From assembly GCF_000018305.1 (NCBI RefSeq), contig NC_009954.1, positions 1,350,001 through 1,382,000 on the forward strand: DNA of 32,000 bases. The letters run 5' to 3'. A program made the position numbers and the translations under genes. Under the pieces are notes generated by a model, which was not told the DNA's origin, did not search any database, and worked only from the letters and a program-made list of their open reading frames with translations. Positions 6,909-23,743 of the stretch are shown piece by piece. Each line of letters begins with the position of its first letter. Positions within the stretch are counted from its first letter, which is position 1. This DNA comes from Caldivirga maquilingensis IC-167. Lineage in GTDB: Archaea > Thermoproteota > Thermoprotei > Thermoproteales > Thermocladiaceae.

Positions 6909-7862
6909 TTGTATAGTTCCTTACCAATAAACGTAATGGTGATCTCTATGAACCAGCGATACCTAGCCCTAGCAGCCCTAGCGTCGGCTCTGTGGGGAGT
7001 ATCATACACCTTAACCTATCTGGCCCTGCGGACAATGGATGCTGCATCATTAATTGTAATTAGTTACGTATTCTCAATACTCATAATTCTCTTAATCACT
7101 AGACTTAAGATTAATGCTGAATCAATTATCAAGGGTGTAATTCTATCGCCAGTGAACTTTGCTTTAACGTACATATACGTTAAGGTATCTGGGGATTGGG
7201 GAGGCTTTGCTGCCTTAATAAGTGGTGCATATGTATTACCTCTGATGCTGCTAAACTATGTTAAAAATGGTGACCTTCAATTAAGGTACTTGATCTCAAG
7301 CCTACTTATGTTAACAACCCTATATTTCATCGGCGGATTTAGTGGTGTAACAATTTATGCTGTTGCAGTCATGTTACTTAACCTGGCCTATATGTTAATG
7401 CTAAGCCTATTCCATAATTATGAGGAATATAGCTTAATCCTAGGCCAGTCCATAGGTACTTTACTACTCTCAATCATAATGGTTAAGGGGATTACACTAA
7501 CGGTGAGTAGTGTCTACTATGGATTAACACTAGCCCTGGTTAACAATACCATACCCTATGTACTCTATGCACTAACGGTTAAGAGGATTGGTGCAGTTGA
7601 GACTTCATTAACCATGGGTATTGAGGTTATGACTGCAGTATTATCTATGTCACCCATATCTAGGGTTCAGGTAAACCCATTTCCCGTAGTGTTACTAGTA
7701 CTGGCATTCATGGTGCTTTTCATGGATCTAAGGCCGGTTAATGAAGATGAGGAGGTAGTCATATATAAATCAATAGGGTGCATTATTAGTAATGAAGGAT
7801 CCGAGACCTACCATGGTTCTTCAATAATCTTTAAAACCCCTAAGCCACCTCAATGCATTTAA
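6909..7862 (+). CDS. DMT/EamA-like 10-TM permease (about 305-317 aa)
   Basis: About ten predicted TM helices arranged 5+5, as in drug/metabolite transporters, plus a short soluble acidic C-tail. The start is uncertain: TTG 6909 lies 20 nt after TATA TTTATAAG at 6882-6889, and ATG 6936 and 6948 are alternatives. Confidence 0.55.
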   Translation: MYSSLPINVMVISMNQRYLALAALASALWGVSYTLTYLALRTMDAASLIVISYVFSILIILLITRLKINAESIIKGVILSPVNFALTYIYVKVSGDWGGFAALISGAYVLPLMLLNYVKNGDLQLRYLISSLLMLTTLYFIGGFSGVTIYAVAVMLLNLAYMLMLSLFHNYEEYSLILGQSIGTLLLSIIMVKGITLTVSSVYYGLTLALVNNTIPYVLYALTVKRIGAVETSLTMGIEVMTAVLSMSPISRVQVNPFPVVLLVLAFMVLFMDLRPVNEDEEVVIYKSIGCIISNEGSETYHGSSIIFKTPKPPQCI

Positions 7863-8100: not shown

Positions 8101-9096
8101 TTAATTTACTGTAGCGATTGCTTCCTTATCATTCTTGTTATTGCTGCTTAATTGCATTATTCTACGCATGGGGACCATGTTTTGACCCAGTACGCATAGG
8201 CCCCATAGTGCGTTTATTAACGGTGAGTAAACGTTTAGGCTTGCGTACACTATACCAACTAGGTTACCCACAAGTAGCTTCCCCTTCTCAACCTCATGTA
8301 TCCCAAATATTGTTAAAAGTAATGGAACTACGTAGCTGTAGGCTAGTGATGAGGACCAGTAGGTTCTATCGAAGAATATTTGCCTAGTCATACCCTTATA
8401 CCATTTATTTAAGGCATCCCTTATTTGACCTGGTTCAGCGTTACCCTTAAAGTACTCATCAATTAGATGAATAACCTCACTGTAGGATCCCCTCTCCACC
8501 TGTCTCGCCTCCTCAACACCCTTTATGTATGGTTCCATTATTAGGAGCGAGAACGGTGTTGCGGCGATAGCCATGGCGCCAATGACCGAGCTTAGTTGAA
8601 ATATTGTCGCCAGTGACACGGCTGTTGTCAATATGTTGGGTGTGAACGTAGTGTACATGCCTCCAATATTCCACATTACAAAGTCAACATCACTAGCCAA
8701 CCTACCAACCATGTCATTTACGTTAACCGAGTTCCTGGAGCCGTTTAACTCCATTATGATCCCATTCTTAATATTGACAATAGCCTTAGTTACAGTATTC
8801 CAAAAGGGCCTAAACAACCACTCAGTGGCTGCATATATTATTGTAGTTGCTAGTATCATTAATATTGCATTCATTATACCGCTCTCCCTAATGCTTAATG
8901 AACCCCCTGACGCTGAACCCTCCAGTGAATTAACTAGACTGGTTAAGGCGAGAGGCATTAGTGAACCTGATGCAATGGCCCTAAGCACGAAGGCTATTAG
9001 AGCAATGATAAATCCGGCGTTAATCTCCCATGAGTACAGGTATCTTCTGTAAAACTTCCAGGTTAAGTCAAGTACCTCAATTATCTTCAGTTTCAT
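8101..9096 (-). CDS. ABC exporter transmembrane domain protein (type I exporter TMD only, no ATPase domain), 331 aa
   Basis: The N-terminus (WKFYRRYLYSWEINAGFIIALIAFVL...) and the six-TM layout with long intracellular loops resemble MsbA/ABCB-type membrane domains. The ORF stops at the position where the linker to the ATPase domain normally begins. I found no Walker A, signature motif or Walker B in or after it. Confidence 0.6.
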   Translation of the reverse strand: MKLKIIEVLDLTWKFYRRYLYSWEINAGFIIALIAFVLRAIASGSLMPLALTSLVNSLEGSASGGSLSIRESGIMNAILMILATTIIYAATEWLFRPFWNTVTKAIVNIKNGIIMELNGSRNSVNVNDMVGRLASDVDFVMWNIGGMYTTFTPNILTTAVSLATIFQLSSVIGAMAIAATPFSLLIMEPYIKGVEEARQVERGSYSEVIHLIDEYFKGNAEPGQIRDALNKWYKGMTRQIFFDRTYWSSSLAYSYVVPLLLTIFGIHEVEKGKLLVGNLVGIVYASLNVYSPLINALWGLCVLGQNMVPMRRIMQLSSNNKNDKEAIATVN

Positions 9097-9192: not shown

Positions 9193-12123
9193 ATGGTTAC
9201 TAGGTCTATTGAGGAATTAGGCGCAAGGTTAGTGTTCGTAATCGCCAGTTCATTCCGAAACATAACGCCACTCAACTGGGATACGGTTGGTGATGGGAGG
9301 TTTAAGCTAAGTGTTAATGCAGGTAATTCAAGTGAATTAATCGTTATTGGTTATAGGGGTAGTGCTTTAGTTAGGCTTAATGGTAAGCCTTACTTTGAAC
9401 TGGATGGGTACCATAAGGCCATTCCCCTACCCAGTGGTTCACATACCGTGGAGGCTGAATTCACACCCTACGCAGCATTCGGTGAATTAGTGGGTATTAA
9501 TGCCGGTAAACCCTACCTGGTTACTAGGGATTACTCAGCGTTGAGGTTTTGGGCGTATGCCTCAAGCACCCTTGAATTAGCCAGGATTATTAATGATGAT
9601 GCAGTTAAGGTGGAGTTACTTAAGGCCTTAACGGAGGCCTTCAGGAAGATTCCCTTCACAAGCGTCTCAAGGGAGCAGTTAATACTTGCAGCTGAACTAT
9701 ACGGTATGCCTTGGAGTGAGAGAATTAACCAAACCATAACCCAGGACTTAGACTACGTTTTCACTGAGGCAAGTGGCGGTAACTTCGATGAGGCCCTTAA
9801 TGTTTTAAGGGGCCGGCTTAATGCCCTTTTACCTAAGTTCGGTAAGGGTGGTTTACTCACTGGTCTTGCCCACGCCCATATTGATACCGCCTGGTTGTGG
9901 AATTTTGATGAGACTAGGCGTAAGGTTCTCAGGACCTTCGCCACCGTTGTCTCATTAATGAGGAGGTTTAACTTCACTTACATGCAGAGTGCAGCCCTAT
10001 ACTACCAGTGGCTTCTTGAGGATGATCCGGAATTATTCAATGAGGTTAAGAGACTTGTTAATGAGGGTAGGTGGATTCTCGGCGCCGGTTGGGTTGAGGC
10101 TGATGCTAATGTGCTTAGTGGTGAATCATGGGCTAGGCAAATGCTTTATAGTCAAAGATTCTACATGAGGCACTTCGGCAGGGTGGCTGAAGTACTATGG
10201 CTACCGGACACCTTTGGATTCAATCAAACGTTACCGCAAATAGCGAGGTTAAGTGGGGTAAAGTTATTTGCAACGCATAAAGTGTACTGGAATGATACAA
10301 ATAAGTTCCCATACAATGTCTTTAATTGGGTTGGACCAGATGGAGATAAGTTACCTGCAGTAACCTTCGGTAACGGTAGGGGTGGTTACAATAGTGACTT
10401 CACAGTGGCCAGTGTCCTTGAGCAGTGGAGGAATTGGGTTGATAAGGATTACCCAATGCTATACAGCTACGGTTACGGTGACGGTGGCGGTGGACCAACA
10501 GTGGAGATGCTGCTTAGGGCTGAGGCCATTAATGAATTACCAATACTACCTAAGGTTGATTTAGTAACCGGCATATCCAAGTACCTTGATGCTAAACCAA
10601 TCAATGAGTGGAGGGGTGAATTATACTTAGAAACCCATAGAGGCACATTAACCTCCCACTCCAAGATGAAGCTCCTTAATAGGAAGTGCGAGATTGCCTT
10701 AAGGGAGGCTGAGCTCTGGAGTGCATTAGCAGGCACCTATGATGCGGTTAAATTCAGTGAACTCTGGAAGACTCTACTCAAGGATCAATTCCACGATGTG
10801 TTACCGGGATCAGCAATAAGGGAAGTTTACCAGAAGGTTGTTTACCAGGAGTTAGAGCAGGTGATAAAGGAGGCTAATGAAATAGCCGTGGAGGCGGCTA
10901 GGAGGATTGCAGGTGAAGGTGAAGCCCTATTAGCCTTCAATTCACTACCATGGGATAGGGTTGACTACGTGGTTGTTAATGAACCAGTTGAGGGTGGTCA
11001 AAGGATTGATGAAGGGTACTTGATCAGGGTTAAGGTACCCAGTGTGGGTTACGCCACGGTTAGGCATATTGAACCCAGTGAACCAGTGAGGATTACTGAG
11101 GATTCTGATGGATACGTTATGGAGAATAGGTTAATTAAGGTTAGGCTTAGTAAGAATGGTAGACTCCTCAGCGTGATTGATAAGGGGAGTGGTAGGGAGT
11201 TACTAAGGGAGCCCAGTAATGTACTGGTGGCTTACGAGAATATGCCTGGTTGGAGTGATGCATGGGATATTGAGAAGGGTTATGAGGAAACCAGCTTCAC
11301 CCTAAACGCCTCAGAGTCCAGTGTTGAATCAAGGGGCCCATTAATGGCTTCAGTTAAGTTTAAGTATGACTTTAGGCGTAGTAGCATTATTCAGGAGGTT
11401 AGGCTCTACGCAGACTCAAAGAGGCTCGACTTCAAGACAACCATTAAGCTTATTGACAGGGAGTTACTGTATAAGGCCTGGTTCCACTTCGACTTAAACA
11501 CTGATGAAGCCTACTTCGATGCACCATACACACCCATTAAGAGACCCACCGTCACTAACACCTCATGGGATTTAGCCCGCTTCGAGGTTCCAATGCATAA
11601 GTGGGTTAGCCTCAGTGAATGCTGCTTCGGTGCGGCGCTCCTTAATGACGGTAAGTACGCCGTTAGCGTTAAGGGCTCCAGTGTAGGTGTTACACTCGCC
11701 AAGACCCCAATATTCCCAGACCCCTCCACTGACCTTGAGGAGGTTACCTTCACGTATAGTTTAATGCCTCATGGAGGCGACTTAATTGAGGTTCATAGAG
11801 CCGCCTGGGAGCTTAACGCACCAATGCTGGTTATTAAGGGTAGGCCAGGTGAGGCTAGCTTAATTAGGCTTAGGCCAAGTAACCTAACGCTTGAGGCAGT
11901 GAAGGTGAGTGAGGATGATTCAAAGGCCTTGGTGATTAGGGTGAGTGAGTTAATTAATGGTAGGGGTATTGGTGAATTAGAGTTACCGTTTAAGCCCAGT
12001 GAGGCCTATGAGACTAACCTAATAGAAACCACTAGAAGCAGTGATGGCATTGAGGTTACTGGGAGCATTGTGAGGTTTAGGTATGGGAATAGGCAGGTGA
12101 AGTCAATTATAGTTAAGTGGTGA
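9193..12123 (+). CDS. GH38-family alpha-mannosidase (about 976 aa)
   Basis: Contains GLAHAHIDTAWLW (GH38 metal-site motif), WLPDTFGF, FHDVLPGS and a long beta-rich C-terminal region, in typical GH38 order. No signal peptide is evident. Confidence 0.9.
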   Translation: MVTRSIEELGARLVFVIASSFRNITPLNWDTVGDGRFKLSVNAGNSSELIVIGYRGSALVRLNGKPYFELDGYHKAIPLPSGSHTVEAEFTPYAAFGELVGINAGKPYLVTRDYSALRFWAYASSTLELARIINDDAVKVELLKALTEAFRKIPFTSVSREQLILAAELYGMPWSERINQTITQDLDYVFTEASGGNFDEALNVLRGRLNALLPKFGKGGLLTGLAHAHIDTAWLWNFDETRRKVLRTFATVVSLMRRFNFTYMQSAALYYQWLLEDDPELFNEVKRLVNEGRWILGAGWVEADANVLSGESWARQMLYSQRFYMRHFGRVAEVLWLPDTFGFNQTLPQIARLSGVKLFATHKVYWNDTNKFPYNVFNWVGPDGDKLPAVTFGNGRGGYNSDFTVASVLEQWRNWVDKDYPMLYSYGYGDGGGGPTVEMLLRAEAINELPILPKVDLVTGISKYLDAKPINEWRGELYLETHRGTLTSHSKMKLLNRKCEIALREAELWSALAGTYDAVKFSELWKTLLKDQFHDVLPGSAIREVYQKVVYQELEQVIKEANEIAVEAARRIAGEGEALLAFNSLPWDRVDYVVVNEPVEGGQRIDEGYLIRVKVPSVGYATVRHIEPSEPVRITEDSDGYVMENRLIKVRLSKNGRLLSVIDKGSGRELLREPSNVLVAYENMPGWSDAWDIEKGYEETSFTLNASESSVESRGPLMASVKFKYDFRRSSIIQEVRLYADSKRLDFKTTIKLIDRELLYKAWFHFDLNTDEAYFDAPYTPIKRPTVTNTSWDLARFEVPMHKWVSLSECCFGAALLNDGKYAVSVKGSSVGVTLAKTPIFPDPSTDLEEVTFTYSLMPHGGDLIEVHRAAWELNAPMLVIKGRPGEASLIRLRPSNLTLEAVKVSEDDSKALVIRVSELINGRGIGELELPFKPSEAYETNLIETTRSSDGIEVTGSIVRFRYGNRQVKSIIVKW

Positions 12124-12688
12124 GGCAGGCTTCAATACTCATTAATATTGAGTGAAGCCTCTCATCACCACCATACTTCACTAACCAATCCACCTCCTCA
12201 CTTAACTTATTGTTAATAACCATGAGGACCTTGCCCCTTAATTCATCAATATTACCCGTGAAAACCAATTGCCTAACCTTACCATTAAACAGCGACTCAA
12301 TATCATTAACGTGGGAACCAGTGACTTCACTAACAGTATTATTGAAAATCTTCACACAGGGCCACCCTAACCTACTGTACTCCTCATATAGTTGAATTGG
12401 GTCACGCCTAATCACCATAACCAAGTCCACGTAGCCGGGGTCCACTAGCTCATAGGCAATGGACTCTAGGGCGCAGTTGACGCCGCAGTTTAAGATAGAC
12501 TTATTAACCAAGTCCGCTGCACAGTCCTTATCAGTGATGTCAAATGACTGGTAATCCTCATTCCACTTAACGCAACCACTACCCAGTAGTAGGTCTGATG
12601 CATTAATTACCTTATACCCTAATTCAGACAGTATTCCTAGGATTGTTGACTTACCTGACTTAGCAACACCAGTAACAAGAATCTTCAC
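12113..12688 (-). CDS. P-loop nucleotide kinase, Fap7/AK6-like (191 aa)
   Basis: Has the Walker A motif MKILVTGVAKSGKST at the extreme N-terminus. The later segment VDLVMVIRRDPIQLYEEYSRLGWPCVKIFNNTVSEV matches the Fap7/AK6 pattern (D.V.VLR..P..L..RL..RG....KI.EN..AE). GTG start directly abuts the upstream stop, preceded by GAGGAGGAGGT. Confidence 0.5.
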   Translation of the reverse strand: MKILVTGVAKSGKSTILGILSELGYKVINASDLLLGSGCVKWNEDYQSFDITDKDCAADLVNKSILNCGVNCALESIAYELVDPGYVDLVMVIRRDPIQLYEEYSRLGWPCVKIFNNTVSEVTGSHVNDIESLFNGKVRQLVFTGNIDELRGKVLMVINNKLSEEVDWLVKYGGDERLHSILMSIEACLTT

Positions 12689-13465
12689 TTAAACCTCCTC
12701 CTCAAGCACTATTGGTGCCTGGGACATGTAGGGTATGTAGACTCCCTTTAATGGACCCTTAACCACAACCCCCATGCCGCTCTCTATTGTGAATTCGTAG
12801 ACCGCTGGTTGAATAGGCTGCCACCTCATCTTCCTAATGAATAAGTACCTCTTAAAACCATCATTAGTCCTAGCTAACCCAAGTATGAAAACCCCTGTGG
12901 CAAGGAACTCCTCGACACCATACCTAGATATGGCCCTTGAACCAGCGGGAACCTCAGTGGTTATTAATGACGTGGCTTGGATCTTCCTCTCAATGCCCAT
13001 AACCAATTCCCTAATATACTCCCTAAGTACCTGTACATCCTTCTCCATGGCAACTAACGGAGCAATGGGATCTATGACCAGTCTCTTAGCGCCAATTGAG
13101 GCTGCGTACTCTGCAATGGATTCAACCATCATTCTAGCAACCACTGATGGATCCTTCTCCCTAATGGTATCTAGTATATCCATTTCAGGAACCAGTACCC
13201 TGAAGAAGCCGGTCCTAGTTAATGCATTAATATCCCAGCCAAACCTCAATGCGCCATTAACGAATTGTTCATAAGTCTCATCAACTGAAACATATATTCC
13301 AGGTTCCCCAAGCCTATAACCATTGATTAGGAATGATAGTGAGAATAGGGTCTTACCTACCCCGGTCTCCCCGGTAACCAGGTAGGTTCTACCTCTAATC
13401 AAGCCACCGCCAATAACCTCATCCAGCCCTGGTATCCCTGTTGGTTCAATATCGTAATACAGCAT
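12689..13465 (-). CDS. KaiC/RadA-paralog-type RecA-superfamily ATPase, single domain (258 aa)
   Basis: Contains GIPGLDEVIGGGLIRGRTYLVTGETGVGKTLFSLSFL (Walker A) and KRLVIDPI (Walker B), as in the KaiC/RAD55/GvpD family. I place the start at ATG 13465 (MLYYDIEPTG...) because a TATA lies 23 nt upstream. The ORF-track start at 13552 would read through that promoter. Confidence 0.8.
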   Translation of the reverse strand: MLYYDIEPTGIPGLDEVIGGGLIRGRTYLVTGETGVGKTLFSLSFLINGYRLGEPGIYVSVDETYEQFVNGALRFGWDINALTRTGFFRVLVPEMDILDTIREKDPSVVARMMVESIAEYAASIGAKRLVIDPIAPLVAMEKDVQVLREYIRELVMGIERKIQATSLITTEVPAGSRAISRYGVEEFLATGVFILGLARTNDGFKRYLFIRKMRWQPIQPAVYEFTIESGMGVVVKGPLKGVYIPYMSQAPIVLEEEV

Positions 13466-13488
13466 TAAGGCTAATCCACCCTGGTGGA

Positions 13489-13497
13489 TATTTAAAT
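13489..13497 (-). promoter_or_regulatory. TATA box (ATTTAAATA on the minus strand) for the KaiC-like gene
   Basis: Lies 23 nt upstream of ATG 13465. Confidence 0.5.
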
Positions 13498-13621
13498 GTT
13501 GCATTGTATTGAGGCTGTTGTTTCGTTTGGTGTAATGGTTGGGGATAGGCATTATTAAGGGGTTTATTAGATAATTACTGGCGCGATAGGTTTATAAAAC
13601 ATTAGGGTAACCCGAACGTTT

Positions 13622-14872
13622 ATGATGCAGGAGGGGAAGGGTAAAGATAGGGCCACTATACTTGGATTAACATCAATCGGTCATTTTATTAATGATGGTA
13701 ATACATGGTTAATACCAGGTATAATACTACCAGTACTTAGTGAAATGGGTGTTAACTACGCTGTAATAGGCTTATTATCAGCATTATACTCAGCTATATC
13801 CGCATTAGCAAGTCCATTAGTGCCGTTAAGCATTAAGTGGCTTGGCGGTCATATGAAGGCAATGGCCCTCGGCATGTTCCTATGGGCGTTCGCAATCGGC
13901 CTATCGTCAATCGGCTTCCTAATCCATGATCTACCCTTAGTTTATGTAGGTGTAGTGTTAGCTGGAGTTGGTGCAGCTTACTATCACCCAATTGGTAGTG
14001 CGCTACTATCCGCCACATACGGTGGAACAGCTGGTTCAGCATTAGGGGTAAATGGTGCATTCGGTAGCCTCGGTAGAACGCTTTACCCATTAATAGGTTC
14101 ATTACTCATATTCGCGGGATCCGTTAGTGAGGCTTATAATCTGTGGGTGTTGGCCTTTATTACGTTTATTGTTGGGCTTTCAGTACTACTCTATGGTGTA
14201 TATAGGTTTGATGTCCATGCCTATGGGAAAAGCACCAGTAGGAGTGATCCATCCAGTAATTCCATGACGCTTAAAGTATCTGTAATGTTGATAATCCTAC
14301 TCTTCATAATCACATTACTAAGAAACACAGCGGGTCAAGGTGTTCAGACGTTCCTCGGCATATACATAAATAAGGTGCTTGGCATTAAACTGAGTGTAAC
14401 GTATGGGGAGGTTCTTTCAATGATCCTAGCCTCAGCTATAGTTGGACAGCCGGTACTCGGTTGGTTAAGTGATAAGGTGGGTAGGAGGTTTATGGCTTCG
14501 CTCTCAACCTTCGCATTCGCCGTACTCTTCATTATTTTCATATATACGGGTAATTTAATTGCAGTGTTCTTAGCAATGCTCTTCGTCTTCAGTAATTTCC
14601 CATTAATAATGGCGGTGCTTGGTGACTTATTCCCAAGGGAGCAGGTTAGTTGGGCTACTTCAATAATATGGAATGGTGCAGTGACTGGAGGTAATGTGCT
14701 TGGTTCTCTAATAACTGGTTTACTTGCTCAATACTATGAACCAATATACGGTGAGGTTGGTGCCCTTGAGCATGCATTACTCATAGTGCTTATACTAGCC
14801 TTCATATCCAGTGCCCTTTGGGTAGTTGTACCTAAACCACCGAAGAGGAGTAGGATTCCGCTTTTCGGTTAA
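13622..14872 (+). CDS. MFS transporter (416 aa)
   Basis: About 12 TM helices split 6+6 by a central hydrophilic loop (YGKSTSRSDPSSNS). It has the MFS-like GWLSDKVGRR loop motif. TATA TTTATAAAA at 13581-13589. Confidence 0.8.
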   Translation: MMQEGKGKDRATILGLTSIGHFINDGNTWLIPGIILPVLSEMGVNYAVIGLLSALYSAISALASPLVPLSIKWLGGHMKAMALGMFLWAFAIGLSSIGFLIHDLPLVYVGVVLAGVGAAYYHPIGSALLSATYGGTAGSALGVNGAFGSLGRTLYPLIGSLLIFAGSVSEAYNLWVLAFITFIVGLSVLLYGVYRFDVHAYGKSTSRSDPSSNSMTLKVSVMLIILLFIITLLRNTAGQGVQTFLGIYINKVLGIKLSVTYGEVLSMILASAIVGQPVLGWLSDKVGRRFMASLSTFAFAVLFIIFIYTGNLIAVFLAMLFVFSNFPLIMAVLGDLFPREQVSWATSIIWNGAVTGGNVLGSLITGLLAQYYEPIYGEVGALEHALLIVLILAFISSALWVVVPKPPKRSRIPLFG

Positions 14873-15432
14873 TCCTTAGATTCCTTAAATTCCTTAAGCT
14901 CCTCATTAAATACACCGCTGAATACATTAAATGCCTCATCATCGTAAAGACATATTATTATCAACCTGACACTCCTCAATCCAGGTGCCTCACGCCTTAT
15001 GGCTTTGGCCATTATCCTAGCGGCCTCATCATAGGGGCAACCGAAGACCCCTGTACTAATGGCTGGGAATGCTATACTCACGATATTCAATTCCTCAGCC
15101 TTCCTCAATGAGTTAACTACAGCATCATTAAGCTTCTCAATAGGTTCAATGCCGCATCTTGGGCCAACGGTGTGAATAATGTACCTTGCCTTCAACCTAC
15201 CAGCCCCAGTGACCGCAACACCACCAACTGGTACTGGGCCATGCTTCTTAACCCACTCCCTCGACTCCTCCTGAATCATCCAACCACCCCTCCTAACAAT
15301 TGCCCCAGCTACACCGCCACCGTGTTCAAGGTACGGGTTAGCGGCATTAACTATGGCATCAACCTCAAGGGTAGTAATATCCCCCTTCATTAACTCAACA
15401 ACCACACCATTAGGGAACTTAAACCTAGGCAT
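14869..15432 (-). CDS. Macro-domain protein (ADP-ribose / O-acetyl-ADP-ribose binding or hydrolase), 187 aa
   Basis: Contains GDITTLEVDAIVNAANPYLEHGGGVAGAI and AFPAISTGVFGCP, which are canonical macro-domain motifs. Confidence 0.9.
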   Translation of the reverse strand: MPRFKFPNGVVVELMKGDITTLEVDAIVNAANPYLEHGGGVAGAIVRRGGWMIQEESREWVKKHGPVPVGGVAVTGAGRLKARYIIHTVGPRCGIEPIEKLNDAVVNSLRKAEELNIVSIAFPAISTGVFGCPYDEAARIMAKAIRREAPGLRSVRLIIICLYDDEAFNVFSGVFNEELKEFKESKD

Positions 15433-15598: not shown

Positions 15599-16723
15599 TT
15601 ACTCCTGGATTCTACTCCTCCTTTTAGTGTCCCTAGCCTTGGATACGTTCTTAATTATGCTTTGCATTATCTTATCCATAGCCTCCCTAATGGCGCTCAC
15701 CGGATCCCTATCCTCGGCTGTGGCTGTGTGGAGTTCCTTATCATCCTTAAGCCTCACAGTGACCTCATACCTCTTCCCAGAGTCCCTGGCCCTTATGTCA
15801 ACCTTAAAATCAACCACATTAACCAGCTTACTAATCTTCTCTAAGTGATTATTAATCACCTTCTCTATTAATGGTTTAGCATCATTATTAATCTCTATCC
15901 TAGCTTGAATAGGGAGGATTATTTTCTTAGAGTCCATGTAGGCCTTAAGCACGTCACTGCCTGATAATACACCAACAACCCCGCCATCATCCGTTACTAT
16001 TAAGCCTGTAACACCCTTACTGACCATCAAATCCACGGCCTTGGTTAATGGCTTATCGGAACCTATGGAGTAAACCTGAGTAGTCATTATACTACTCACT
16101 GGCGCGGCCAGGAACTCCTCTTCGCCCGAGAAGTCACCCCTCCTAGATCTCCTGGGCATTGATACGTAGTATATTTTCTCAATTAAGTCTGTTAACGACA
16201 CCACCCCAACTAGCCTATTACCATCAACCACAGGTAACCTACTAATACCGTGCTTGATCATTAGCCACCTAGCCTTAGCAACATTATCGCTCGGGGTTAT
16301 TGTTAGGACTGGCTTAGTCATGTAATCCCCAACCTTAGCGTTAGCCGGTAATTGATCCTTTATGGCTGTGAGTAATCTGCTCCTAGTTAATATGCCGATT
16401 AACTTACCATTATTATCAATAACAGGGTACTCCCTAAGCCTAGTTTCGTAGAACTTCCTAACAACATTATCAATATCACTGTTGAGGCTTATTGAGTGGG
16501 GTGGAAGCATTACTGAGGATGCCCTTGACCCGAGAGGAGCCTTCCTCCTTAGTAAATCCCTGTAATCTATTACACCAATTAGTTTACTTGAATCATTAAC
16601 CACGGGTGCGGTGTGAATCCTCAACTCCCTCATCTTGGGTATTATTGAGGATAACCTGTCCTTAGCATTAACCACCACTGGTGACTCTTGAATAAGTTCA
16701 CTCAACATTAAGTTATAATCCAT
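15599..16723 (-). CDS. Four-CBS-domain protein fused to a C-terminal HPF/RaiA (ribosome hibernation factor)-like domain
   Basis: Four CBS repeats, each ending in the pattern h.PVVD..GKLIGVh...DLL. The last 106 aa (nt 15602-15919) are ILPIQARIEINNDAKPLIEKVINNHLEKISKLVNVVDFKVDIRARDSGKRYEVTVRLKDDKELHTATAEDRDPVSAIREAMDKIMQSIIKNVSKARDTKRR. By eye this aligns along its length with E. coli HPF/RaiA (..I.G....IT.AL...V..K..KL........V..V.L.......A...........A....D.Y.AID...DKL.RQL.K.K). I prefer the start at ATG 16723 (MDYNLML...), and the ORF-track ATG 16765 is also possible. Confidence 0.8.
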   Translation of the reverse strand: MDYNLMLSELIQESPVVVNAKDRLSSIIPKMRELRIHTAPVVNDSSKLIGVIDYRDLLRRKAPLGSRASSVMLPPHSISLNSDIDNVVRKFYETRLREYPVIDNNGKLIGILTRSRLLTAIKDQLPANAKVGDYMTKPVLTITPSDNVAKARWLMIKHGISRLPVVDGNRLVGVVSLTDLIEKIYYVSMPRRSRRGDFSGEEEFLAAPVSSIMTTQVYSIGSDKPLTKAVDLMVSKGVTGLIVTDDGGVVGVLSGSDVLKAYMDSKKIILPIQARIEINNDAKPLIEKVINNHLEKISKLVNVVDFKVDIRARDSGKRYEVTVRLKDDKELHTATAEDRDPVSAIREAMDKIMQSIIKNVSKARDTKRRSRIQE

Positions 16724-16847
16724 GTTAGGTCTTAAAAAAGTTATGCCTATAATTACCACATCCACACCTCGTCTAATCCATCATTGGTAACTTTACTCAT
16801 TCACACTTCAATGAAACCTATTAAGGCGGGGAACTTTAGTAGTAAAG

Positions 16848-16895: not shown

Positions 16896-17975
16896 ATGAG
16901 GTACAAGGAACGCTACCTAGTGCTTGCCGATGGTAGTGTTTACAGGGGTTACGCCTTTGGTGCGGATTCAGAAACCGTGGGTGAAGTCGTGTTCACCACG
17001 GCTAATGTAGGTTACCCAGAGTCCTTAACCGACCCATCCTATAAGGGTCAAATACTGGTTTTCACAAGCCCATTAATAGGTAATTACGGGGTTTCAAAGG
17101 AACAGTGGGAGAGTGACTCAATTCAAGTCAACGGCGTCGTGATCTTTGACTTAACTAAACCAAGCCACTACACATCAATAATGAGCCTCGATGAGTGGCT
17201 TAGGAACCAGGATGTTCCAGGTATTTTCAGGGTTGATACCAGGGCATTAACAATAAGGCTTAGGGAGCAGGGGGTCATAATGGGTGCTATAGTTGATGAC
17301 CCAGGGAGAGGCATGAGTATGATTAATGAGGCCCCATCCTACGATTCAATAAACTTCGTTAAACTGGTCTCACCTCAAAGCCCAATCACCTATGGGGGTG
17401 AGGACCCATGCATAGGCATTATTGACTGCGGTGTTAAGCTAGGTATAGTTAGGGAATTGGTTAGTAGGGGTGTTGAGGTTATTCGCTACCCATGCCTAAT
17501 GTGGAGGAGGGCGCTTGATGAGTGTGATGGCGTGTTAATAAGTAATGGCCCAGGTAACCCCATGCTTTTAACCGAATTAACAAGCCTAGTGGATGATGTT
17601 GTTAAGGATCGTAAACCAACACTCGGCATATGCTTGGGTCATCAAGTGGTGGCCCTTGGAATGGGGGCTAGGTTATTTAAAATGAGGTACGGGCATAGGG
17701 CTATTAATAAACCCGTCCTCGACTTGGTTAGGAATAGGGTGTATGTAACAACGCATAATCACGGCTACGCAGTGGATCCATCAACACTAAGCGGTACTGG
17801 GCTTAAGGTTTGGGCCATTCAGCCTGATGATGGTACAGTGGAGGGTCTTTACCATGAGAAGTTACCAATATTAACAACCCAATTCCACCCTGAGGCTAGA
17901 CCAGGCCCAGTGGATACTAGGTGGATTTTCGATAAGTTCATTAGTGTTGTTAAGGGTGAATCAGGTTGGATGTGA
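16896..17975 (+). CDS. carA: Carbamoyl-phosphate synthase small (glutamine amidotransferase) subunit
   Basis: The N-terminal CPSase small-subunit domain has VFTTANVGYPESLTDPSYKGQILVFTSPLIGNYG. The class I amidotransferase triad region has GICLGHQ...HNHGYAV...FHPE. Confidence 0.95.
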   Translation: MRYKERYLVLADGSVYRGYAFGADSETVGEVVFTTANVGYPESLTDPSYKGQILVFTSPLIGNYGVSKEQWESDSIQVNGVVIFDLTKPSHYTSIMSLDEWLRNQDVPGIFRVDTRALTIRLREQGVIMGAIVDDPGRGMSMINEAPSYDSINFVKLVSPQSPITYGGEDPCIGIIDCGVKLGIVRELVSRGVEVIRYPCLMWRRALDECDGVLISNGPGNPMLLTELTSLVDDVVKDRKPTLGICLGHQVVALGMGARLFKMRYGHRAINKPVLDLVRNRVYVTTHNHGYAVDPSTLSGTGLKVWAIQPDDGTVEGLYHEKLPILTTQFHPEARPGPVDTRWIFDKFISVVKGESGWM

Positions 17976-20900
17976 GGAGTGTCTTAATAATTGGTAGTGG
18001 GGCAATTAAGGTTGCTGAGGCTGCTGAATTCGATTACTCAGGTATACAGGCATTGAAGGCATTTAGGGAGGAGGGTATTAGGACTATTCTAGTTAACCCA
18101 AATGTAGCCACTGTCCAAACAACCAATGTATTCGCCGATAGGGTTTACTTCACCCCCATTAAGACTCAGTTCCTTGAGAAGGTTATTGAACAGGAGAGAC
18201 CTGACGCAATTGCCTGCGGCTTCGGGGGTCAAACAGCGTTATCAGCCTGCATAAACCTTAATGATGCAGGGGTGTTGAGTAAGTATGGTGTAAAGGTACT
18301 GGGTACCCCGATAGAGGGTATTAGAAGTGCATTAAGTAGGGACTTATTCAAGAATCTAATGTTAAGTAAAGGCCTACCTGTACTTAAGTCAGTAACAGCA
18401 CACGGCATTAATGAGGCGTTAAGGGGGGCTGAGGAGATTGGGTACCCAGTGCTGGTTAGGGTTTCATTCAACTTAGGTGGTGCAGGTGCATTTGTGGCTA
18501 GGAGTAGTGAGGAGTTGGTGAGTAGGATGCATAAGGCGCTTGCTCAAAGTGAAATCAAGGAGGTTCTGATAGAGAAGTACATTGGTGGGTGGAAGGAGAT
18601 TGAGTTCGAGGTGATGAGGGACTCCCACGGTGACTCAGTGGCTGTGGTGTGTATGGAGAACATTGACCCAATGGGTATTCACACAGGGGACTCAGTTGTA
18701 GTGGCGCCGTGCTTAACGTTAACTAATGATGAGTACCAAAGGTCAAGGTACATTTCAATTAAAGTGGCTGAATCCATTGGGCTAGTGGGTGAATGCAATG
18801 TACAGGTAGCCATTGATAATAAGGGCCCTGAAATGTACGTGGTTGAAACTAACCCAAGGATGAGTAGGTCAAGTGCCCTAGCCAGTAAAGCCTCAGGATA
18901 CCCTCTAGCCTACATAGCGGCTAAACTGGCTTTAGGCTATAGGTTAAGTGAACTCCTCAATAAGGTAACCGGTAGAACAATAACAGCCTTTGAACCAAGC
19001 CTAGACTACATTGTGGTTAAGATACCTAGGTGGGAGAACGATAGGTTCAATGTTAATGAGTCACTTGGCCCAGAGATGATGAGTATAGGTGAGGTAATGG
19101 GTATTGGCAGGACCCTTGAGGAGGCTTGGCAGAAGGCAGTGAGGATGCTGGATATTGGTGAACCAGGCCTAGTGGGTGGACGCATATACAATGAGTCAAC
19201 CCTTGAGGAGGCTGTTAAGATGGTTAAGGAGAGGAAGCCTTACTGGTTCCTATACGCCGCTAGGCTTCTTAAGGATGGTTACAGTATTGATGATATTTCA
19301 GAATGGACTGGGGTTGATAGATTCTTCATAAATGCAATTAAGAATGTAGTGGATACCTATGAATTAATCAAGAGGGGTGGTGAATTACCGGTTAGTGAGG
19401 TTTACGCCCTAGGCTTCAGTGAGGAGCAACTTAGGGGTATTGGGGCGTATTTAAGTCAAGGTGTTGTTAAGGTTGTTAAGCAGATAGATACCCTTGCCGG
19501 TGAATGGCCTGCATCAACCAACTACCTATACTTAACCAGTGGTGGTCAATTCGATGATAATACTGGACCCAGTGTTGATGCATTAGTTATTGGTGCAGGC
19601 GTATTCAGGATTGGTGTTAGCGTTGAGTTCGATTGGTCAGTGGTTAATACTGTGCTTGGCCTTAGGGAGTTGGGTTACAGGGTTGGTGTAGTTAATTACA
19701 ACCCTGAAACAGTTAGCACCGACTGGGACTTCGCAGATAAATTATTCTTCGAGGAGTTAACACCTGAGGCGCTTAGATGGATTATAATTAAGGAGAACCC
19801 TAAGTTAGTGGTATTATGGGCTGGTGGACAGATTGGGCAAAGGCTATACAGTAAGGCGCGCACATGGATAGGTGACTCTAGGATACTTGGCACTGATCCA
19901 AGTTCCATTGACTTAGCTGAGGATAGGGTTAAGTTCTCTAAGCTACTTGATAAGCTTAACGTGGCTCAACCACCATGGGCTTACGCAAGCAGTATGGGTG
20001 AGTTAATCAACCTGGTGGAGAGGTGGCTTGATTACCCAGTAATAGTGAGGCCCAGTTATGTTCTCGGTGGAACATACATGGGTGTGGCTAGGAATAGGAG
20101 TGAGTTAACCAGCTTTGTTGAGAAGGCTGCTAAAATAAGCCCAGAACACCCAGTGTTAGTGTCAAAGTTTTTAAAGGGCGGTGTTGAGGCTGAGACTGAC
20201 GGTGTCAGTGATGGTAAGGGAACCATACTAATCCCCATAGAACACGTTGAACCACCCGGTGTACACTCCGGGGATAGTACAATGGTCCTTGTACCCAATG
20301 GGTCAAGTTATAGGTTAAGTAATGGGCAAGTTAATGAAATGGCTAAGGTAACTCATTTAATAGCCTCAGAATTAGGTGTTAAGGGTCCATTAAATGTTCA
20401 ATTCATAATAAGTGATAAGGTCTACGTAATTGAGGCTAACATTAGGTCAAGTAGATCAATGCCCCTCAGCAGTAAGGCCACTGGAATTAACCTAGCTAAA
20501 CTAGCCTTAAGAGCAGCAATAAGTGGACTTGGTATAGAGGGTTATAGGTTAATTAAGCCTAGGGAATGGTGGGTTAAGTCGGCTCAATTCTCATGGTCAA
20601 GGATAAGGGGCGCATACCCAAGGCTTGGCCCAGTCATGTATAGTACGGGGGAGGTTGCTTCAAGTGGAGTCACCCTGGAGGAGGCTCTCCTTAAATCATG
20701 GTTATCCACAGTACCATCAAGAATACCGAGTAATAACGCCCTAGTCTACACTTACGATGAGGATCACGTTAAGAACATTGAGGAAGCCAGGAGGCTACTT
20801 AGCCAGTATTTAAACATAATTGAAGTGGAGAAGGCGCATGAATTACTGAAGCTTGGTAAAGTCGATATCCTGGTTACTGGAGGATCCACCGAGGATAAGG

Positions 20901-21067
20901 ATTACGTAACCCGTAGACTGGCTGCAGACACATCCACCCCACTCATCTTAGACTCAACACTAGGGCTTGAGTTGGCTAGGGCGTTTAAATGGTATTGGAG
21001 TGGTGGTGAATTAAACGTTAAGCCATGGGGTGGTGAATCAAGTATAGGTGACCTTAAGTGGAGTTAA
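17966..21067 (+). CDS. carB: Carbamoyl-phosphate synthase large subunit (1033 aa)
   Basis: Contains VLIIGSGAIKVAEAAEFDYSG and a duplicated ATP-grasp half (VIGAGVFRIGVSVEFDW...), plus NPRMSRSSALASKASGYPLA and an MGS-like C-terminus. The start (TTG 17966 or GTG 17972) overlaps the carA stop. Confidence 0.95.
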   Translation: MDVRSVLIIGSGAIKVAEAAEFDYSGIQALKAFREEGIRTILVNPNVATVQTTNVFADRVYFTPIKTQFLEKVIEQERPDAIACGFGGQTALSACINLNDAGVLSKYGVKVLGTPIEGIRSALSRDLFKNLMLSKGLPVLKSVTAHGINEALRGAEEIGYPVLVRVSFNLGGAGAFVARSSEELVSRMHKALAQSEIKEVLIEKYIGGWKEIEFEVMRDSHGDSVAVVCMENIDPMGIHTGDSVVVAPCLTLTNDEYQRSRYISIKVAESIGLVGECNVQVAIDNKGPEMYVVETNPRMSRSSALASKASGYPLAYIAAKLALGYRLSELLNKVTGRTITAFEPSLDYIVVKIPRWENDRFNVNESLGPEMMSIGEVMGIGRTLEEAWQKAVRMLDIGEPGLVGGRIYNESTLEEAVKMVKERKPYWFLYAARLLKDGYSIDDISEWTGVDRFFINAIKNVVDTYELIKRGGELPVSEVYALGFSEEQLRGIGAYLSQGVVKVVKQIDTLAGEWPASTNYLYLTSGGQFDDNTGPSVDALVIGAGVFRIGVSVEFDWSVVNTVLGLRELGYRVGVVNYNPETVSTDWDFADKLFFEELTPEALRWIIIKENPKLVVLWAGGQIGQRLYSKARTWIGDSRILGTDPSSIDLAEDRVKFSKLLDKLNVAQPPWAYASSMGELINLVERWLDYPVIVRPSYVLGGTYMGVARNRSELTSFVEKAAKISPEHPVLVSKFLKGGVEAETDGVSDGKGTILIPIEHVEPPGVHSGDSTMVLVPNGSSYRLSNGQVNEMAKVTHLIASELGVKGPLNVQFIISDKVYVIEANIRSSRSMPLSSKATGINLAKLALRAAISGLGIEGYRLIKPREWWVKSAQFSWSRIRGAYPRLGPVMYSTGEVASSGVTLEEALLKSWLSTVPSRIPSNNALVYTYDEDHVKNIEEARRLLSQYLNIIEVEKAHELLKLGKVDILVTGGSTEDKDYVTRRLAADTSTPLILDSTLGLELARAFKWYWSGGELNVKPWGGESSIGDLKWS

Positions 21068-21858
21068 CCATAACCTACGATTACTTAAGAGAGGAGGAGG
21101 TGGAGTTAATTAAGGCATTTAATGAACTCGGCGTTAACGTTAATACGCTGCAATCCACGAAACCACTCCACGTTAAGGAGCTTAATGGAGTCTTCCTAGT
21201 GAGGAACCTTAACCATAGGACTGCAATAACCATGGCCGGTATAATTGAGAACACTGGTGGTGTATCAATAAACAGGTACCTGACCCTCTCATTAACGTGG
21301 AATAAGGCCATTACGACTGCACTACTTAAGAGAATAGGCCTACCCGTCCCAGACACCTACGTTGTATTTGAGCCTATTATTGATGGTGTAGCCGGTGGTG
21401 GGCGTATTATTAAGCCTGCCTCAGGTTCATGGGGTAGGTTAACGGCCATTGTAAGTGATGGTGAAGCTAAGCTACTGATAAAGCATGCTAAGGATCACTT
21501 ACCCGTGCTTCTTCAAGAGAGGATTGGTGACGGTAGTGACTTAAGGATCTTCGTAATTAATGGTTCAGTGGTTGCATCAATGATGAGGAAGCCCCCTCAG
21601 GGTGATTGGAGGAGTAATGTAGCTAGGGGTGGGTTGGCTATGCCCATTAAGGTTAATGAGGAATTAGAGGAGTATGCAATTAAGGCCACTGAGGCTGTGG
21701 GTGCATTCTATGCTGGTGTTGATGTTTTAATAGGTAGGGATGGCTACTATATAAGTGAGATTAACGGCATCCCTGAATTTAAGGCAATAAGCAAGGTCAG
21801 TGGTGTTAGGGTTAGTTTTAAGCTGGCTGAGGCTGTCAGTGAGTGGATTAAGAGATGA
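21058..21858 (+). CDS. RimK/LysX-family ATP-grasp ligase, candidate glutamate--LysW ligase (ArgX-like), 266 aa
   Basis: Contains IIKPASGSWGRL, DLRIFVINGSVVASMMRKPPQGDWRSNVARGG and YYISEINGIPEF, which are LysX/RimK family motifs. The GTG start overlaps the carB stop by 10 nt. The ArgX assignment is inferred from this coupling to carAB. Confidence 0.75.
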   Translation: MELTITYDYLREEEVELIKAFNELGVNVNTLQSTKPLHVKELNGVFLVRNLNHRTAITMAGIIENTGGVSINRYLTLSLTWNKAITTALLKRIGLPVPDTYVVFEPIIDGVAGGGRIIKPASGSWGRLTAIVSDGEAKLLIKHAKDHLPVLLQERIGDGSDLRIFVINGSVVASMMRKPPQGDWRSNVARGGLAMPIKVNEELEEYAIKATEAVGAFYAGVDVLIGRDGYYISEINGIPEFKAISKVSGVRVSFKLAEAVSEWIKR

Positions 21859-22663
21859 TTAACCTAGCCACCTCCTCAGCTATTTCACCGGCAACATTAA
21901 TCCCAGTAACCCTTTGAACATTCTTGAATTCAGGCACACCATTAACCTCAAGAACAAGGTAACCCCTATCAGACTCAACAACATCCACACCTGAGTACAC
22001 TGAACCAGTAGCCTTACTGGCCTTAACTGAAATATCCTCAAGCTCAGGGTCAATCTTAACAGGGGCTGCTGAACCACCCCTTGCAGTGTTGGTTCTCCAA
22101 TCATCACTATACCTATAGATTGCGGCCACTGCCCTATCACCAACAACAGTAACCCTAATGTCCCGCTTAGGCTTCCTAACATACTCCTGACCCAGTAATA
22201 CATCATCACTGTAACTCCTAATTATTAAACCAGCTTCCCTGGCAGTGTTGGCTAAGGCAACTAACCTACCCCATGAACCATCAGTTGGCTTTATTATTAA
22301 CGGTGCCCCAAGTTCACTTAAAGCCCCCTCCTCATGATCCAGTAGGAGCATTGACCTCGGTACCGGTACACCAGCTTTAATCAACCTAACTAGGGTGAGG
22401 AACTTATCGTGCGTTATGTATAGGCTGTTGAATGGGTTAATTGACCCAAGCCCTAGTTCCTGGTAGGTGAATGATAATGGCAAAACCTTACTCCTACCAG
22501 CCACCCTAATTAACCCGAATGCATTAATGCTAGTATTACTAATATTAATGGATTCAGCCCTAATAGGCCTAACGCTTAATCCTCGCTTACCCAGCTCATT
22601 AATAAGAAGCTTCTCCTCCAGTCTAATTATGTCGTAGAGGATGTGGACTTCAATAGAAATCAC
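21848..22663 (-). CDS. lysX: Alpha-aminoadipate--LysW ligase (LysX, RimK family ATP-grasp), 271 aa
   Basis: Contains YDIIRLEEKLL, LIIKPTDGSWGRL, DIRVTVVGDRAVAAIYRYSDDWRTNTARGG and LVLEVNGVPEFKN, all close to characterised LysX. The GTG start directly abuts the lysW stop codon. Confidence 0.85.
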   Translation of the reverse strand: MISIEVHILYDIIRLEEKLLINELGKRGLSVRPIRAESINISNTSINAFGLIRVAGRSKVLPLSFTYQELGLGSINPFNSLYITHDKFLTLVRLIKAGVPVPRSMLLLDHEEGALSELGAPLIIKPTDGSWGRLVALANTAREAGLIIRSYSDDVLLGQEYVRKPKRDIRVTVVGDRAVAAIYRYSDDWRTNTARGGSAAPVKIDPELEDISVKASKATGSVYSGVDVVESDRGYLVLEVNGVPEFKNVQRVTGINVAGEIAEEVARLIIS

Positions 22664-22843
22664 CTATTCACCGTAATCCTCAACATCCCCCTTAAACTCC
22701 TCGAGTTCAAGCTTATCCTTACTAATCTTCACAATGTACTTTGTACCGCATGTTGGGCAACTGGTTAACTCACCATCCATTATATCCTCAGGTAGGTCGA
22801 ACTCGGTTCCACATACTTTACAGGTTGCTTTAAGCGCCTGCAT
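22664..22843 (-). CDS. lysW: Amino-group carrier protein LysW (59 aa)
   Basis: Has the Zn ribbon CKVCG...CPTCG and an acidic C-terminus ending EDYGE (family consensus EDWGE, with the terminal Glu as attachment site). I place the start at ATG 22843 (MQALKATCKVCG) because TATA TTTATAAA lies 22 nt upstream. The ORF-track 99-aa version reads through the promoter. Confidence 0.9.
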   Translation of the reverse strand: MQALKATCKVCGTEFDLPEDIMDGELTSCPTCGTKYIVKISKDKLELEEFKGDVEDYGE

Positions 22844-22865
22844 AGTTACCCGTGTTTTCCACGTG

Positions 22866-22873
22866 TTTATAAA
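22866..22873 (-). promoter_or_regulatory. TATA box (TTTATAAA) for lysW-lysX
   Basis: Palindromic TTTATAAA lies 22 nt upstream of ATG 22843, inside the 112-nt lysZ-lysW spacer. Confidence 0.55.
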
Positions 22874-22955
22874 TTTTTCTATATAAGTAAAAGAAAGCAT
22901 GCACACTATGCAAAGTATGTTGACGTCAAACATCCATGTATAAACCCGTGAAGGT

Positions 22956-23732
22956 TTACTCAACCACGGTTCCTAATCCATTGAGCGCGGATCGTATTGG
23001 CTTATCCCTCAGGCCATTGGCTATTATCGTCCTAACACCCAGTTCAGTGAGCTTAAGGGCTGTCTCAAGCTTCCTCCTCATACCTCCTGTGGTGTATTGG
23101 AGTATTTCCTGGGCATTGGCCTTAGTGACCTTATCAATGGGCTTACCGTTAACCAATACTCCATCAACATTAGTTAATATTACTAATTCCTTAACATTCA
23201 TTGATATTGCTATGTTTTCAGCTATTTGATCGCCATCAACGTTAAGCATAAGTCCCTCTTGGGATAAGGCTATTGGACTCACCACAACTACGTCTGAGTT
23301 ACTCAGCATTAGGTTCATGATGTTAACGTTAACCCCAGTCACCCTGCCACTGAATCCCCCATCAATAACCCTAGTCCTCCCCCTCTCATCAATAATCATT
23401 ACCCTCTCCTTCCTCTTAGCCGTAACCAACCCTAAGTCAACCCCACTTAGGCCTATTGCCCTAATTCCCCTTGCATTAAGCTTACTCACTATTAGCTTGT
23501 TAATGAGCATCATGGTCATTACGTAAGCCTTAAGGGTCTCCTCATCAGTGTACCTGCTGGTGTATCCATTGGGGTGCTTCAGTATAACTGGCTTAACACC
23601 CATCCTCTCCATTACGCTATTAACCATGCAGCCACCACCGTGAATAAGCACGGTGCCTGGTTCAACATCATTAGTAACGTTATCCAAGCCTCCACCGCAT
23701 ATTACTGAACCACCAAGTTTAACAAGTATCAT
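22956..23732 (-). CDS. lysZ: [LysW]-aminoadipate / [LysW]-glutamate kinase (LysZ, ArgB family), 258 aa
   Basis: Amino-acid-kinase fold motifs are present: MILVKLGGSV, VLIHGGG and TNVDGV. AGGTGAT (SD-like) lies 5 nt upstream of the ATG, and the gene starts 11 nt after the lysY stop. Confidence 0.9.
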   Translation of the reverse strand: MILVKLGGSVICGGGLDNVTNDVEPGTVLIHGGGCMVNSVMERMGVKPVILKHPNGYTSRYTDEETLKAYVMTMMLINKLIVSKLNARGIRAIGLSGVDLGLVTAKRKERVMIIDERGRTRVIDGGFSGRVTGVNVNIMNLMLSNSDVVVVSPIALSQEGLMLNVDGDQIAENIAISMNVKELVILTNVDGVLVNGKPIDKVTKANAQEILQYTTGGMRRKLETALKLTELGVRTIIANGLRDKPIRSALNGLGTVVE

Positions 23733-23743
23733 TTATTAATCAC

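Follow-up and report, generated by a model that had tools for sequence, protein, structure and literature searches.

The minus-strand gene at positions 15599-16708 of the 32,000-nucleotide stretch of the Caldivirga maquilingensis IC-167 chromosome analyzed here (NC_009954.1, positions 1,350,001 to 1,382,000; hereafter, the window) is, with a probability that we put at about 0.9, orthologous to the gene for HibA, the ribosome hibernation factor of archaea that also goes by the name AHA. The identification draws on the domain content of the 369-amino-acid product, a fold prediction, homology, and the conservation of the start codon. The architecture, four CBS motifs followed by an HPF-like domain, is already known, having been described and tested in 2025-2026 under the names HibA and AHA, and the window gene is an ordinary, under-annotated member of that family. 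An exact-sequence look-up matched the product to WP_048063002.1 of C. maquilingensis, which carries only the RefSeq label "CBS domain-containing protein". The coding sequence and the parts of its product are as follows.

15599..16708, minus strand: coding sequence of the hibA/AHA orthologue, 369 amino acids plus the TAA stop at 15599-15601 (open reading frame list, conserved start, Pfam, collinearity with 9sr9_H)
16349..16708, minus strand: Bateman module 1, CBS1 plus CBS2 (Pfam, AlphaFold2 secondary structure, Foldseek)
16538..16708, minus strand: CBS1, residues about 1-57 (Pfam, AlphaFold2)
16349..16525, minus strand: CBS2, residues about 62-120 (Pfam, AlphaFold2)
15935..16339, minus strand: Bateman module 2, CBS3 plus CBS4 (Pfam, conserved Asp residues)
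16163..16339, minus strand: CBS3, residues about 124-182, with the ribose-binding Asp motif LTDLI
16100..16156, minus strand: basic loop between CBS3 and CBS4, PRRSRRGDFSGEEEFLAAP, residues 185-203 (HibA alignment, low model confidence, conserved length)
15935..16099, minus strand: CBS4, residues about 204-258, with the ribose-binding Asp motif GSDVL
15602..15919, minus strand: HPF-like domain, residues 264-369, by homology a predicted module for the 30S decoding center and mRNA channel (PF02482, AlphaFold2, profile search, hhalign)
15602..15640, minus strand: basic C-terminal tail KARDTKRRSRIQE, residues 357-369, with a nearly invariant KRR motif (sequence)

Relationship to HibA and AHA

HibA was characterized in Pyrococcus abyssi and Thermococcus barophilus (PMC13324472; Madru et al., Nat Commun 2026, preprint October 2025; PDB 9SR9-9SRF). 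It consists of a four-CBS module (residues 1-269), whose two Bateman modules form a disk, and an HPF/RaiA-like domain (residues 270-392), the latter occupying the 30S channel for mRNA and tRNA as bacterial HPF does, and its CBS module was seen in three positions on the 50S subunit, in one of which a loop of residues 190-207, the PTC loop, enters the peptidyl-transferase center (PTC) (PMC13324472). For the CBS module, dissociation constants of 12, 65, and 113 uM were obtained with AMP, ADP, and ATP, respectively, and neither AMP nor ATP clearly affected the ribosome binding of HibA (PMC13324472). AHA of Haloferax volcanii (PMC12934967; Souza et al., bioRxiv 2026) has the same arrangement of a CBS tetrad and an HPF domain, with two AMP molecules at the CBS3/CBS4 junction and its "loop 3" in the PTC. 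AHA, too, was shown to bind AMP, ADP, and ATP; the data on nucleotide binding in P. abyssi and H. volcanii come from isothermal titration calorimetry and cryo-electron microscopy. For both proteins, structures on the 70S ribosome were determined by cryo-electron microscopy (cryo-EM), in vitro translation was inhibited, deletion phenotypes were reported, and protection of ribosomes in stationary phase and a requirement for recovery from it were found; their HPF domains have the fold of bacterial HPF and occupy the same 30S site (PMC13324472, PMC12934967). The HibA family was detected in 47% of 4026 archaeal genomes (PMC13324472), and 3,160 AHA homologues were counted in 2,723 archaeal species (PMC12934967). 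The survey database of the former study includes the genome of C. maquilingensis, and no per-genome presence table was found in its supplement (PMC13324472). A preliminary description of the window had proposed a ribosome hibernation factor that unites an adenine-nucleotide sensor and a 30S module in one polypeptide; the experiments on HibA and AHA bear this out for the orthologues, and by sequence homology the same would hold for the Caldivirga protein.

The closest relative of the window protein in the PDB was P. abyssi HibA (9sr9_H, 392 amino acids; further HibA entries, 9sra-9srf), with residues 65-369 matching residues 66-381 at an E-value of 2.3e-25. The match is collinear and spans CBS2 to CBS4 as well as the HPF domain, and the two proteins are similar in size (392 versus 369 amino acids). 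HibA (the PAB0961/TK1186 family) was described from euryarchaea, whereas the window protein, known from sequence, belongs to a crenarchaeon of the order Thermoproteales. Full-length homologues were found across the Thermoproteota, in Caldivirga and, with 32-45% identity, in Thermocladium, Ignisphaera, the Desulfurococcales, and the Sulfolobaceae. AHA belongs to the same family as HibA, and the window protein shares with it the ribose-binding Asp of CBS3 and CBS4; AHA is a haloarchaeal, acidic protein, which was likened to the window protein through its published description. The PDB also holds a 406-amino-acid "CBS domain-containing protein" (9l96_a; entries 9l96, 9l98, 9l9c, and 9l9v) that looks haloarchaeal by its acidity; a full-text search for the code 9L96 returned no paper citing it. 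With this chain, the HibA/AHA family may have a third, independent structure on the ribosome.

The HPF-like C-terminal domain

The preliminary description had recognized an HPF/RaiA-like domain at 15602-15919, and the boundary is right; the assignment, well above chance, was upheld by Pfam. The family PF02482 (Ribosomal_S30AE) matched residues 279-363 (in the numbering of a 374-amino-acid version of the protein) over profile positions 7-87 of 88, with a score of 35.7 bits for the full protein and 38.6 bits for the C-terminal 116 residues alone, above the gathering cut-off of 23.7 bits. The equivalog cut-off of NCBIfam TIGR00741 (HPF/YfiA) was missed, at 22.5 versus 40.9 bits. The C-terminal domain, judged from its sequence, is homologous to HPF, yet it is no equivalog of the bacterial type. 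Other NCBIfam matches of the protein were to many CBS families, all of them below the curated cut-offs. PF02482 recognizes the Caldivirga proteins, while many longer crenarchaeal homologues have no precomputed hit, probably because the Caldivirga domain is compact.

A small alpha/beta fold could come to look like HPF by chance or convergence, in which case the C-terminal domain would be unrelated to HPF. Along with the missed equivalog cut-off, this explanation could draw on weak alternative Pfam matches (Nse1 and LeuA_dimer) and on a phmmer search of the single C-terminal sequence against PDB sequences, which returned nothing (best E-value, 0.85). It is contradicted by the above-threshold PF02482 match over 81 of 88 profile positions and by a search of the PDB with a profile built from 26 diverse C-termini of the family (alignment A3). 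This profile matched residues 270-384 of 9sr9_H (E-value, 9.8e-16), residues 289-391 of 9l96_a (9.3e-15), Thermus thermophilus HPF (6gzx; 2.7e-6), Escherichia coli HPF (2rql; 1.3e-3), and E. coli RaiA (2.4e-3), followed at weaker E-values by more than 25 further HPF, RaiA, and PSRP1 chains from Bacillus subtilis, Lactococcus lactis, spinach (PSRP1), and other organisms. Nothing outside HPF/RaiA/PSRP1 and the chains of the family itself was significant in that search. In an hhalign comparison with E. coli HPF, the profile was aligned with a probability of 90% and an E-value of 1.6e-6. The helix register claimed in the preliminary description was recovered, LHTATAEDRDPVSAIREAMDKIMQSIIK being paired in the same way with the 27-residue E. 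coli HPF segment, within a 32-residue pairing for LHTATAEDRDPVSAIREAMDKIMQSIIKNVSKA. Together with the cryo-EM structures of the orthologues, in which the HPF fold sits at the same 30S site, these results leave a fortuitous resemblance extremely improbable, and we regard it as already effectively refuted.

The predicted fold pointed in the same direction. AlphaFold2 gave a poor model from the single sequence, with a predicted local distance difference test (pLDDT) score of 61.6, and a pLDDT of 86.3 when an alignment of 91 relatives was supplied. In the latter model, each of the four CBS units has a beta-alpha-beta-beta-alpha order, and the C-terminal domain (in 369-amino-acid numbering) comprises a strand at 269-271, a helix at 278-293, strands at 298-308, 313-322, and 326-333, and a helix at 336-367. 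The predicted topology of this domain is identical to that of HPF. Foldseek matched the model to CBS tetrads only, among them MJ1225, SriA, Dri, and AMPK-gamma, at template modelling (TM) scores of 0.75-0.80; the PDB copy used reached to 2026-04-08 and contained no HibA entries, so that this search bears on the tetrad.

The CBS tetrad and the basic loop

The two Bateman modules of the preliminary description were confirmed by Pfam, which found four CBS stretches (E-value, 3.8e-52), the strongest lying within CBS3. The ribose-binding Asp residues of CBS3 and CBS4 are kept in the window protein, and CBS2 has an Arg at the corresponding position. These residues are invariant or nearly so in the family, being invariant in alignment A1 (D193 and D271) and nearly invariant in alignment A2 (D174 and D252). 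This pattern agrees with the published nucleotide sites at the CBS3/CBS4 interface and, on the evidence of the sequence, hints at adenine-nucleotide binding there in the window protein.

The basic loop PRRSRRGDFSGEEEFLAAP between CBS3 and CBS4 aligns with the PTC loop of P. abyssi HibA at residues about 189-207. The segment from anchor to anchor (YYVSMP to AAPVSS) is 21 residues long, as it is in 52 of the 91 relatives, which makes this the most frequent length in the family. Within the loop, R, E, E, A, P, and V are nearly invariant; both the length and the basic/acidic motif are conserved among these relatives. The AlphaFold2 model shows no structure and a low pLDDT at about residues 184-195. 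The loop corresponds to the PTC loop of HibA and to loop 3 of AHA and, by analogy with these orthologues, may share their insertion into the PTC.

Departures from the characterized orthologues

Several observations weigh against the assignment to HibA. The window protein and P. abyssi HibA have a low sequence identity, and the C-terminal domain found no PDB relative when searched as a single sequence, as described above. When the CBS module was searched by itself, HibA was its best PDB match with 90.1 bits and the stand-alone tetrad MJ1225 reached 88.3 bits; pairwise scores weakly suggest that the module falls within the HibA-CM clade rather than among CM-1 to CM-6. The Caldivirga HPF domain lacks both archaeal-specific insertions, through which the P. 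abyssi protein contacts uS19 and uS12. These insertions lie at residues 283-285 and 324-330 of P. abyssi HibA, and the corresponding segments of the Caldivirga clade are of about bacterial length, as seen in the hhalign comparison with E. coli HPF, and are the shortest among the 91 relatives (20 residues versus a mode of 24, and 13 versus a mode of 22); no relative in this set has a more compact HPF domain. A near-invariant Trp of HibA before the last helix, kept in 82 of the 91 relatives in a G-W-D context, is an Arg (EDRDP) in the four Caldivirga sequences. Finally, ribosome binding, nucleotide binding, and the physiological role would be carried over to the Caldivirga protein from its homologues. 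The insertions were not counted as a defining trait of HibA, because those of P. abyssi HibA proved dispensable for inhibition in vitro (PMC13324472).

The protein might instead serve mainly as a metabolic or transcriptional CBS regulator of the HhpR/CM-3 or AMPK-gamma-like kind, its HPF domain having been repurposed to bind nucleic acid or protein in place of the ribosome. Altered binding could be signaled by the compactness of the HPF domain and by the replacement of its Trp, the CBS module scores nearly as high against MJ1225, which is not a ribosomal factor, as against HibA, pull-downs of HibA in Thermococcales revealed links to DNA replication and recombination proteins (PMC13324472), and the NCBIfam search gave a sub-threshold HhpR match (54.6 bits versus a cut-off of 520) among its many CBS families. 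These matches, HhpR-type and other, lie far under the curated cut-offs, however, and CM-3 proteins (HhpR) have no HPF domain (PMC13324472), whereas the window protein keeps an HPF domain, a PTC loop, and a basic tail, all of them conserved, and its best match over the full length was seen bound to the ribosome. We therefore consider such a regulator quite improbable and retain the identification as HibA.

Comparison with other hibernation factors

The C-terminal domain is homologous to bacterial HPF/RaiA (YfiA)/PSRP1 (PF02482) over nearly the whole model and has the same topology. Bacterial HPFs are either stand-alone proteins of about 95-115 amino acids or carry a C-terminal dimerization domain (long HPF), and none has an N-terminal CBS tetrad reaching the 50S subunit. 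The HPF domain of the window protein is of neither type, since it forms the C-terminus of a 369-amino-acid protein behind four CBS motifs.

Among the factors of the Thermoproteota, Dri of Pyrobaculum calidifontis (Nissley et al. 2024/2025; 9E6Q/9E7F) likewise places an N-terminal CBS tetrad with a PTC loop on the 50S subunit, and this tetrad is related to that of the window protein (Foldseek E-value, 2.6e-18; phmmer E-value, 1.2e-16). Dri, however, is 655 amino acids long, and it blocks the 30S mRNA channel with another CBS tetrad where HibA has its HPF domain; unlike Dri, the window protein has a single tetrad and an HPF-like C-terminus, and chain 9e6q_3 matches it through the CBS repeats only. 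On the 50S subunit, the Dri tetrad is rotated by about 180 degrees relative to that of AHA (PMC12934967). SriA-D and ARC-A/P of Methanosarcina and Methanolobus (PMC13454478; 10.64898/2026.01.19.700304) are ribosome-binding CBS tetrads as well, but each is a polypeptide of its own and lacks an HPF domain. SriA was the third-best structural match of the window tetrad (Foldseek E-value, 2.7e-22). An adenine-nucleotide-dependent association was reported for ARC (PMC13454478; 10.64898/2026.01.19.700304), and the distribution of SriA-D/ARC is largely complementary to that of HibA/AHA (PMC13324472, PMC12934967).

Start codon, putative promoter, and the internal ATG

The gene lies in a single long minus-strand open reading frame, 15599-16765, which opens with a GTG and comprises 388 codons. 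Different starts have been assigned to it: GenBank ABW02121.1 is a 386-amino-acid version and the RefSeq product has 369 amino acids, while the preliminary description had begun the protein at ATG 16723, giving 374 amino acids. The upstream region was aligned with four related loci, from three Caldivirga genomes and one unclassified Thermoproteaceae metagenome-assembled genome. ATG 16708 (MLSELIQ...) was kept across this alignment, whereas ATG 16723 was replaced by ACGAG or GCAAG in two of the three Caldivirga orthologues. Conservation and the RefSeq call thus ruled out both GTG 16765 and ATG 16723, and the sequence comparison identifies ATG 16708 as the true start of a 369-amino-acid protein. 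A putative promoter element was located upstream of it.

16729..16746, minus strand: putative promoter block GCATAACTTTTTTAAGAC, a putative B recognition element (BRE) plus TATA box (conservation; function proposed from archaeal promoter geometry)

This block (GCATAACYTTTTTAAGAC, 16729-16746) was kept in the three Caldivirga orthologues, and its flanks diverge. The putative TATA box TTTTTTAA at 16732-16739 lies 23-30 nucleotides upstream of ATG 16708, with its center at about 27 nucleotides. Archaeal TATA boxes that drive leaderless mRNAs have this geometry; it implies an mRNA with no leader or almost none, and hibA is probably transcribed from this box as a leaderless message.

The preliminary description had further noted an internal ATG just ahead of the HPF domain and suggested that a stand-alone form might be made from it. 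Its position had been given as 15947, off by 10 nucleotides.

15935..15937, minus strand: internal in-frame ATG, Met258 of the 369-amino-acid protein (MDSKKIIL...); probably not a start (sequence)

Two products would then arise from the locus, the full-length fusion and a stand-alone HPF-like protein of about 112 amino acids initiated at ATG 15937. Besides the location of the codon, the existence of stand-alone HPF/RaiA-like proteins in about 8% of archaea, following the loss of the CBS module, could be cited in favor of this. Those proteins, however, are separate genes and do not arise from internal starts (PMC13324472). The residue is M, I, L, V, S, or A among the relatives and is replaced even in close members of the Caldivirga clade, and since it is not conserved, a separately initiated HPF protein is left without support. 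The sole AT-rich element upstream of the codon, GTATTATC at a distance of about 26 nucleotides, is a poor TATA match in a genome of 56% A+T. We accordingly judge a second product highly improbable.

Genomic context

For the genomic context, 37 related loci were gathered from a 14-sequence alignment. The neighbors of hibA are housekeeping genes. Divergently upstream of it lie carA and carB, followed by genes of a lysine/arginine pathway. Downstream, on the same strand and after a gap of 166 nucleotides, come a macro-domain gene, a major facilitator superfamily (MFS) transporter gene, a KaiC-like ATPase gene, and a gene for an AAA_18 protein. Among the 37 loci, carAB adjoins hibA in Caldivirga only, and no operon partner (macro-domain, MFS, KaiC-like ATPase, or carAB) was shared outside the genus. 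The hibA gene looks monocistronic.

The macro-domain protein (14869-15432, minus strand; PF01661, E-value 2e-40) has a TATA-like element of its own, ATTTAAGT. In Caldivirga sp. UBA161, its gene and hibA are about 3.5 kb apart, and it was not found beside hibA in Caldivirga sp. MU80 or RSNS23; because the adjacency is not conserved, a functional link between the two genes was rejected. In MU80 (L002:5140-5990) and RSNS23 (L003:2376-3065), the KaiC-like ATPase gene directly follows the hibA homologue. The MFS and macro-domain pair of the window (13622-15432), which is missing at this place in the two species, thus marks a species-level insertion or deletion of about 1.9 kb. The KaiC/RadA-like ATPase gene (PF06745, E-value 1.8e-64) and the AAA_18 (adenylate-kinase-like) gene occupy 12113-13552 on the minus strand; stop and start abut at 12688/12689, so that the two probably form an operon, and Caldivirga sp. 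MU80 shares the pair.

Other features of the window were recorded as follows. The region 16896-24676 contains carA and carB, two opposed RimK/LysX-type ATP-grasp genes (21058-21858, plus strand; 21848-22663, minus strand), an amino-acid kinase gene (22956-23732, minus strand), and a semialdehyde dehydrogenase gene (23744-24676, minus strand), and it looks like an archaeal carrier-protein lysine/arginine pathway beside carbamoyl-phosphate synthase. A tRNA-Ser (GGA) gene at 6598-6683 on the plus strand was the only Rfam or ARAGORN match in the window, and no C/D-box sRNA family reached the threshold there, although a Nop5 gene is present at 3550-4785. Six open reading frames of 134-331 amino acids had no Pfam match at an E-value of 1e-5 or below.

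2632-3120, minus strand: open reading frame without a Pfam match
5587-6030, plus strand: open reading frame without a Pfam match
6909-7862, plus strand: open reading frame without a Pfam match
8101-9096, minus strand: open reading frame without a Pfam match
29209-29613, minus strand: open reading frame without a Pfam match
31457-31909, minus strand: open reading frame without a Pfam match

Outside the genus, the hibA homologue in the draft genome of Thermocladium modestius JCM 10088 (L037:4001-5101) appeared as four tblastn segments in different frames, and another T. modestius record (P0007) holds an intact homologue of 375 amino acids. The split copy most likely reflects sequencing frameshifts in the draft and not a pseudogene.

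Proposed mechanism and implications

By analogy with the cryo-EM structures from P. abyssi and H. volcanii, the HPF-like domain of the Caldivirga protein would occupy the decoding center of the 30S subunit, within the channel for mRNA and tRNA, with its basic tail directed toward the mRNA channel. The CBS tetrad would bind the 50S subunit so as to cover the A, P, or E tRNA sites, pushing its basic CBS3-CBS4 loop into the PTC. With the HPF domain on the 30S subunit and the tetrad on the 50S subunit, one polypeptide would clamp the idle 70S ribosome, in which translation would be blocked and functional rRNA may be shielded from damage in stationary phase or under stress. Most likely, the CBS3/CBS4 pocket prefers AMP to ADP and ATP and could thereby read out the energy status of the cell.

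The setting of this gene is an order, the Thermoproteales, whose ribosomes have unusually divergent PTCs and in which the sister lineage Pyrobaculum uses Dri. The protein of the Caldivirga clade might be a streamlined HibA, which has about bacterial HPF loop lengths through the loss of both insertions and in which the Trp was replaced by Arg, although we think this unlikely. If it were true, the contacts with the 30S subunit (uS12, the uS19 tail, and the decoding bases) could differ from those of P. abyssi HibA, and the protein could represent a stage in evolution at which, inside a single order, Dri was taking over from HibA. The architecture and function of the published factor had been deduced in the preliminary description from raw sequence alone. 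For annotation, WP_048063002.1 can be renamed HibA/AHA, with its start set at 16708, and the compact, insertion-free HPF module of the Caldivirga clade might help comparative structural work. More broadly, HPF is not exclusively a bacterial and plastidial factor, and its archaeal form, as published in 2025-2026, shares one chain with an adenylate sensor of the AMPK-gamma kind, which also plugs the PTC.

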